Made by a program: the position numbers and the translations under genes. Below the pieces are notes generated by a model. It did no database searches and had not been told where the DNA came from. It was given only the letters and a program-made list of their open reading frames with translations. A stretch of 1,133 nt of DNA, from assembly GCF_003334355.1 (NCBI RefSeq), contig NZ_QOWP01000096.1; one strand, given 5' to 3'. Source of the stretch: Escherichia coli (lineage in GTDB: Bacteria > Pseudomonadota > Gammaproteobacteria > Enterobacterales > Enterobacteriaceae). Of this stretch, positions 1 to 1,133 are shown piece after piece (position 1 is the first letter of the stretch; each line of letters opens with the position of its first letter).

Positions 1-1133
1 AAAAACTGGATCGACAAAGAAGAATATCCGCAATCCGCAGCCATCGACCTGCGTTGCGTAAATATGGTTGCCGATCTGTGGCATGCGCCTGCGCCGAAAA
101 ATGGTCAGGCCGTTGGCACCAACACCATTGGTTCTTCCGAGGCCTGTATGCTCGGCGGGATGGCGATGAAATGGCGTTGGCGCAAGCGTATGGAAGCTGC
201 AGGCAAACCAACGGATAAACCAAACCTAGTGTGCGGTCCGGTACAAATCTGCTGGCATAAATTCGCCCGCTACTGGGATGTGGAGCTGCGTGAGATCCCT
301 ATGCGCCCCGGTCAGTTGTTTATGGACCCGAAACGCATGATTGAAGCCTGTGACGAAAACACCATCGGCGTGGTGCCGACTTTCGGCGTGACCTACACCG
401 GTAACTATGAGTTCCCACAACCGCTGCACGATGCGCTGGATAAATTCCAGGCCGACACCGGTATCGACATCGACATGCACATCGACGCTGCCAGCGGTGG
501 CTTCCTGGCACCGTTCGTCGCCCCGGATATCGTCTGGGACTTCCGCCTGCCGCGTGTGAAATCGATCAGTGCTTCAGGCCATAAATTCGGTCTGGCTCCG
601 CTGGGCTGCGGCTGGGTTATCTGGCGTGACGAAGAAGCGCTGCCGCAGGAACTGGTGTTCAACGTTGACTACCTGGGTGGTCAAATTGGTACTTTTGCCA
701 TCAACTTCTCCCGCCCGGCGGGTCAGGTAATTGCACAGTACTATGAATTCCTGCGCCTCGGTCGTGAAGGCTATACCAAAGTACAGAACGCCTCTTACCA
801 GGTTGCCGCTTATCTGGCGGATGAAATCGCCAAACTGGGGCCGTATGAGTTCATCTGTACGGGTCGCCCGGACGAAGGCATCCCGGCGGTTTGCTTCAAA
901 CTGAAAGATGGTGAAGATCCGGGATACACCCTGTACGACCTCTCTGAACGTCTGCGTCTGCGCGGCTGGCAGGTTCCGGCCTTCACTCTCGGCGGTGAAG
1001 CCACCGACATCGTGGTGATGCGCATTATGTGTCGTCGCGGCTTCGAAATGGACTTTGCTGAACTGTTGCTGGAAGACTACAAAGCCTCCCTGAAATATCT
1101 CAGCGATCACCCGAAACTGCAGGGTATTGCCCA
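1..1133 (+). CDS. gadA/gadB: Glutamate decarboxylase (PLP-dependent, Gad family), internal fragment truncated at both ends; about residues 82-458 of a ~466-aa protein
   Basis: Seen in sequence: frame 1 (codons at 1-3, 4-6, ...) is open across all 377 complete codons. The translation contains the PLP-attachment motif S-G-H-K-F (lysine codon AAA at 583-585), the GSSEAC phosphate-binding segment (130-147) and the long C-terminal segment ...[37 protein letters not shown]. From memory, the translation is identical or nearly identical to E. coli GadB/GadA over the whole window. The last 2 nt (1132-1133, 'ca') are the start of a Gln codon; about 8 more codons and the stop lie beyond the window. Paralog assignment (gadA vs gadB) is not possible here because the residues that differ between them are N-terminal, upstream of the window. 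Confidence 0.95.
574..588 (+). other. PLP cofactor attachment site: S-G-H-K-F motif, Schiff-base lysine (Lys276 in GadB numbering) at codon 583-585
   Basis: Seen in sequence: tca ggc cat aaa ttc at 574-588 in the coding frame encodes SGHKF. Established knowledge: in group II PLP-dependent decarboxylases, including E. coli GadB, the lysine of this motif forms the internal aldimine with PLP. The residue number is derived by aligning window codon 1 (K-N-W-I-D-K-E-E-Y) to GadB residue 82. Confidence 0.85.

Follow-up and report, generated by a model that had tools for sequence, protein, structure and literature searches.

The Glutamate Decarboxylases of Escherichia coli

The glutamate decarboxylase (Gad) of E. 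coli is a 318-kDa homohexamer, organized as a trimer of dimers, that uses one proton per turnover in the conversion of L-glutamate to GABA and CO2 and whose activity is maximal at pH 4–5 and undetectable at pH ≥6 (PMC12961736). The protein comprises three domains, corresponding to residues 1–57, 58–346, and 347–466, and PLP is held by Lys276 as a Schiff base (PMC12961736). The segments that rearrange with pH are the first 15 residues, the hairpin formed by residues 300–313, and the last 15 residues; in particular, the N-terminal ~15 residues become helical at acid pH, and above ~pH 5.5 the deprotonated His465 of the C-terminal tail attacks the Lys276-PLP imine, with the formation of a substituted aldamine that plugs the active site (PMC12961736).

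The two paralogous genes, gadA and gadB, are among the best-studied determinants of acid resistance: their structures are solved, the pH switch is known, and duplication and gene conversion are documented. gadA (b3517; structure 1XEY) lies in the acid fitness island, in the context treF-ccp-gadA-gadX-gadW, and is recognizable by its specific 5' end (ATGGACCAGAAG...) and by gadX downstream; gadB (b1493; structures 1PMM and 2DGK) is co-transcribed with gadC and lies in the context pqqL-gadB-gadC. Gene conversion between the paralogues was described by Bergholz et al. 2007, as cited in PMC10362622, and breaks at gadA/gadB have been reported for shotgun assemblies (PMC3045373).

Reading Frame and Position in the Gene

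The window, i.e., the whole 1133-nt stretch of DNA analysed here, is read in frame +1 of the + strand as 377 codons with zero stops across all of its length, and no other frame of the window is open from end to end. It represents an internal segment of the gadA/gadB coding sequence (window positions 1..1133, + strand; gene nt 244–1376 of 1401), which contains codons 82–458 and two bases of codon 459, with both the start and the stop codon lying outside. This segment is the central 81% of the gene and accounts for 377 of the 466 residues of the protein; 243 nt at the 5' end and 25 nt at the 3' end of gadA are absent, and the gadA-specific N-terminal residues are consequently not visible.

A megablast search against 5426 complete E. 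coli genomes matched the window in every one of them (5426/5426), with a median of two matching places in each and full 1133-nt ungapped alignment inside coding sequences annotated as glutamate decarboxylase. Among the matches listed, five complete E. coli genomes have 100.0% DNA identity, all in genes annotated as gadA, and the K-12 records have 99.9%. The loci read around a 100% match (strain 90-3040) and a 99.9% match (K-12) contain an intact 1401-nt gadA coding sequence at locus coordinates 3758–5158, in which the window occupies 4001–5133, and the neighbouring genes treF, ccp, gadX, gadW, and mdtF are those of the acid fitness island.

The first-pass annotation had placed the window wholly inside a known glutamate decarboxylase gene, and this placement is borne out by the single stop-free frame and by the ungapped megablast alignment. 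The comparison with the K-12 paralogues that it had proposed as a check gave 1132 of 1133 identical nucleotides for gadA (b3517) and 1129 of 1133 for gadB (b1493), and both alignments are free of gaps and frameshifts. It is thus virtually certain that the window comes from the interior of the canonical gene for the enterobacterial glutamate decarboxylase and represents the core shared by the two paralogues, with silent bases of the gadA type; its content is already known and includes nothing new.

Encoded Protein

The translation is 100% identical to residues 82–458 of both GadA (1XEY) and GadB (1PMM), with E ~1e-269, and to the truncated GadB chain 2DGK, whose chain positions 68–444 are the same residues 82–458. 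The E. coli chains score 897 bits, compared with ~370–380 bits for the next best glutamate decarboxylases. The latter include bacterial and plant enzymes (7X4Y, 5GP4, and 3HBX), which belong to the same group II PLP-decarboxylase fold family and can be aligned to almost all of the window with E values from 1e-108 to 1e-113; however, their scores are far below those of the E. coli enzymes, and the window encodes the enterobacterial enzyme itself.

Family profiles lead to the same assignment. The NCBIfam equivalog TIGR01788, "glutamate decarboxylase" (EC 4.1.1.15), matches with 597.9 bits and is covered from profile position 67 to 430 of 431; its curated cut-off of 380.4 bits is exceeded with only 377 of the 466 residues present. 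In the Pfam search, PF00282 (Pyridoxal_deC, group II PLP-dependent decarboxylases) matches window residues 1–302 on the + strand with E 4e-99 and 332 bits, covering model positions 66–375 of 375.

The residues Asp86, Glu89, Gln163, Thr212, Asp243, His275, Lys276, and Arg422 all occur where they are expected. Asp86, whose codon lies at 13..15 (+), has a role in the binding of the substrate gamma-carboxylate and in product release (PMC12961736). The codons of His275 and Lys276 (CAT AAA; 580..585, +) belong to an S-G-H-K motif, in which Lys276, window codon 195 (nt 583–585), is the residue of the Schiff base with PLP (PMC12961736). The beta-hairpin of residues 300–313, which shifts over the active-site entrance in the pH-dependent activation (PMC12961736), is encoded at 655..696 (+). 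According to the published domain limits (PMC12961736), positions 1..795 (+) encode residues 82–346 of the large PLP-binding domain (58–346), and positions 796..1133 (+) encode residues 347–458 of the C-terminal small domain. The N-terminal pH switch (residues 1–15) is outside the window, which starts at codon 82, and the last eight residues (459–466), including the His465 plug, lie beyond its end; in the genomes with a 100% match, whose 1401-nt coding sequence is intact, both parts are retained.

Judged from its sequence, the product of the complete gene would be a glutamate decarboxylase catalyzing the reaction L-glutamate + H+ → GABA + CO2, and this activity is assigned because the encoded segment is 100% identical to a biochemically characterized enzyme. 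The window would then supply residues 82–458 of a 466-residue, PLP-dependent, homohexameric protein predicted to take up one proton for each glutamate decarboxylated and, together with the glutamate/GABA antiporter GadC, to clear the cell of protons that leak in at low pH. In this scheme, the window would hold the catalytic Lys276, the Asp86 that contacts the distal carboxylate of the substrate, and the activation hairpin 300–313, and the two regulatory ends, i.e., the N-terminal ~15 residues and the His465 tail, would be encoded just outside it.

Alleles and Selection

Compared base by base, the window shows no differences from gadA of strain 90-3040. It differs from K-12 gadA at one position (228, A instead of G) and from K-12 gadB at four positions (228, 399, 456, and 936), and all of these differences are silent. 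The third-position A at 228 (+) makes the codon of Leu157 the rare CTA, where both K-12 gadA and K-12 gadB have CTG. This silent allele appears to be uncommon and could mark the lineage of the source strain, as 100.0% identity is found in only five records among the matches listed.

Ten alleles with 97.3–100% identity were compared, including gadA and gadB of several lineages and the copies on two large records labelled as plasmids. Of their 50 variable sites, 47 are third codon positions in frame +1; nonsynonymous variation is limited to three sites and amounts to D153N and T312S. Between alleles, the region of an antisense open reading frame of 178 aa (574–1110, − strand) shows one nonsynonymous and 21 synonymous codon changes when read in the sense frame, and 21 nonsynonymous and one synonymous when read in the antisense frame; because of this opposition, purifying selection is seen to act on frame +1 only.

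Search for a Second Element

The window was also searched for elements other than the coding sequence. There is no Rfam match on either strand at E≤1, no tRNA or tmRNA, no sigma-70-like promoter on either strand, and no Chi site, even with one mismatch allowed. Two terminator-like sites were found, both weak and on the minus strand, where 0.9 were expected. The search for direct, inverted, and tandem repeats returned only a 12-nt match in two copies, a 14-nt palindrome, and a 24-nt run of ATCGAC, which encodes Asp-Ile-Asp-Ile-Asp, and the window contains no repeat array. The GC content is flat along the window (0.545–0.59).

The mechanical list of open reading frames contains, off frame, short ones and the 178-codon antisense frame mentioned above. 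In a fold scan with 150-nt windows on both strands (40 windows), the mean z is −0.6; the extreme, at 801–950 on the minus strand, has z = −2.8 in the coarse scan and z = −2.3 when re-measured with 200 shuffles, a value that is not unusual for the lowest among 40 windows. In the literature, nothing relevant was found on antisense or intragenic features in gadA.

The earlier reading of the window as free of intergenic space, of a second gene, of a repeat array, and of unexplained RNA structure is therefore upheld by the open reading frame, repeat, Rfam, tRNA, and fold searches. Its further statement that the window holds nothing previously undescribed stands as well, given the exact identity to a characterized gene. 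The window is a clean negative and does not change existing knowledge.

Paralogue-Separating Sites and Limits of the Window

K-12 GadA and GadB differ in five amino acids, at residues 3, 5, 6, 9, and 22, all of which are outside the window. At the DNA level, the two K-12 genes have 31 nucleotide differences: 26 at gene nt 6–243, three in the window, and two beyond it (1377 and 1395). The three internal sites are silent and correspond to window positions 399 (gene nt 642), 456 (gene nt 699), and 936 (gene nt 1179), all on the + strand; at each of them the window and K-12 gadA have C and K-12 gadB has T. The window thus carries the gadA-type base at 3/3 internal sites, a weak discriminator, as the same sites are of the gadA type in gadB of some genome records. 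In particular, in the MG1655-derived NZ_CP097883.1, gadB (700–2101 of the locus read) has the gadA version of the bases at gene nt 642, 699, and 1179, in contrast to the reference NC_000913.3.

Several complete genomes derived from K-12 (MG1655 derivatives, J53, C600, and MT102) show a single mismatch to a chimeric query made of the K-12 gadB upstream region and the window. The gadA-type gadB of K-12-derived records is due either to recent gene conversion in laboratory lineages or to an artefact of assembly or polishing at a duplicated gene.

The ends of the window fall at the limits of the sequence shared by the paralogues. In K-12 coordinates, it starts one base after the gadA/gadB difference at gene nt 243 and stops one base before that at 1377, and in NZ_CP097883.1 the longest exact block common to gadA and gadB is nt 244–1376, 1133 nt long, identical in extent to the window. 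A 3722-bp record filed as a plasmid, NZ_AP027522.1, ends 50 nt into the window sequence (3672–3721), inside an incomplete "pyridoxal-dependent decarboxylase"; this record resembles a piece of a chromosomal contig interrupted at the edge of the gadA/gadB repeat and not a plasmid. Because the ends flank sites 243 and 1377, the extent matches the NZ_CP097883.1 block, conversion and assembly breaks are documented in the literature, and NZ_AP027522.1 terminates as it does, the limits of the window were probably set by those of the gadA/gadB repeat, as in a contig that is collapsed or ends at repeat edges.

The origin of the window as an exact repeat was also considered in a genome that has its own allele, and this fails in strain 90-3040: its gadA is 100% identical to the window, yet five sites separate its gadB from the window, and the two copies of this strain thus do not share the block as an exact repeat. 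From this mismatch, and from the result of a search of the 5426 genomes with two chimeric queries combining gadB flanks with the window, where no gadB-flanked copy has the exact window allele and the best reach 99.8–99.9%, it follows either that the source genome is not represented or that the coincidence of both ends is due to chance, and such a double coincidence is unlikely. We infer that the window stands for the core shared by the paralogues and not for one locus.

Alternative Explanations

The window cannot be assigned with certainty to gadA rather than to gadB, because none of the amino acids it encodes is specific to one paralogue and the three silent sites that discriminate the copies can be exchanged between them. 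The possibility that its source is the gadB copy, which lies upstream of gadC, or that it is a collapsed consensus of both copies, instead of the gadA of the acid fitness island, is considered rather unlikely. GadA and GadB are identical over the encoded segment; gadB copies that are of the gadA type at all three internal sites exist in MG1655-, J53-, and C600-derived records; the extent of the window is the exact shared block of NZ_CP097883.1, as expected of a collapsed repeat contig; and conversion between the two genes is on record (Bergholz et al. 2007, cited in PMC10362622). Against this, all five 100% matches among those listed are annotated as gadA, the two matches whose flanks were read (90-3040 and K-12) sit in the treF-ccp-gadA-gadX-gadW context, the window itself being without flanks, and no gadB-flanked copy with A at position 228 was found among the 5426 genomes. 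For a contig made of the shared core alone, no locus assignment is possible and the copy number is likely two.

The reading of the window as a piece of the canonical gene is also to be compared with that of a divergent homologue or a pseudogene fragment, which is extremely improbable and is refuted within the window by its exact identity, its open frame, and its intact catalytic residues. The first-pass annotation had named amino acid identity below 90%, gaps, or frameshifts as signs of a divergent homologue; the encoded protein matches GadA and GadB at 100% identity over residues 82–458, and the DNA matches intact annotated genes at 100% over its full length with neither gaps nor stops. A second functional element overlapping the coding sequence, whether an antisense protein gene at 574–1110 (−) or a structured antisense or intragenic RNA, is likewise very improbable. 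In its favour, the 178-codon antisense frame exists without internal stops in 10/10 alleles, and the minus strand at 801–950 folds at the re-measured z. However, when the window was shuffled among synonymous codons, keeping the GadA protein and the codon usage of the window, the longest off-frame open stretch was at least as long as the observed 185 codons in 86% of 2000 trials (mean 233), and the antisense frame changes freely between alleles. Antisense frames have no match in NCBIfam or PHROGs, and neither a promoter-like site nor an Rfam match at E≤1 accompanies them. The frame at 574–1110 (−) was thus rejected as a gene on account of its chance length, the missing family match, and its nonsynonymous to synonymous ratio of 21:1. 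As for the fold at 801–950 (−), allele substitutions break one to three of its pairs, with no compensatory change. A so far unannotated transcript (antisense or intragenic) in the homogenized gadA/gadB core, for example one using this fold, is hardly plausible, and no sequence feature or variation supports it.

Other gad Records

Some observations concern gad copies elsewhere in the collections. In strain TUM10008 (NZ_CP135658.1, 2480903–2482812), the best-matching gad copy is disrupted, being split in two by an insertion of the IS1A family (IS1). Among the records labelled as non-mobilizable plasmids, gad genes are found on two large ones, NZ_CP141085.1 (385 kb), which carries gadB-gadC, and CP054253.1 (253 kb); in the plasmid collection, three records of several megabases are evidently chromosomal. 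The gad genes on large plasmid-labelled records are probably mislabelled or fragmented chromosomal sequence and not really plasmid-borne.

In strain 90-3040 (NZ_CP027459.1), the region read downstream of gadBC (17747–48789) contains many genes flagged as frameshifted or with an internal stop, including dosP, ddpX, adhP, narU, nhoA, and fragments of yddL, which suggests uncorrected indel errors in the assembly or a real decay in this lineage. Finally, some E. coli genomes have up to 10 places matching the window, compared with the median of two, which suggests that a few assemblies contain additional or fragmented gad copies.
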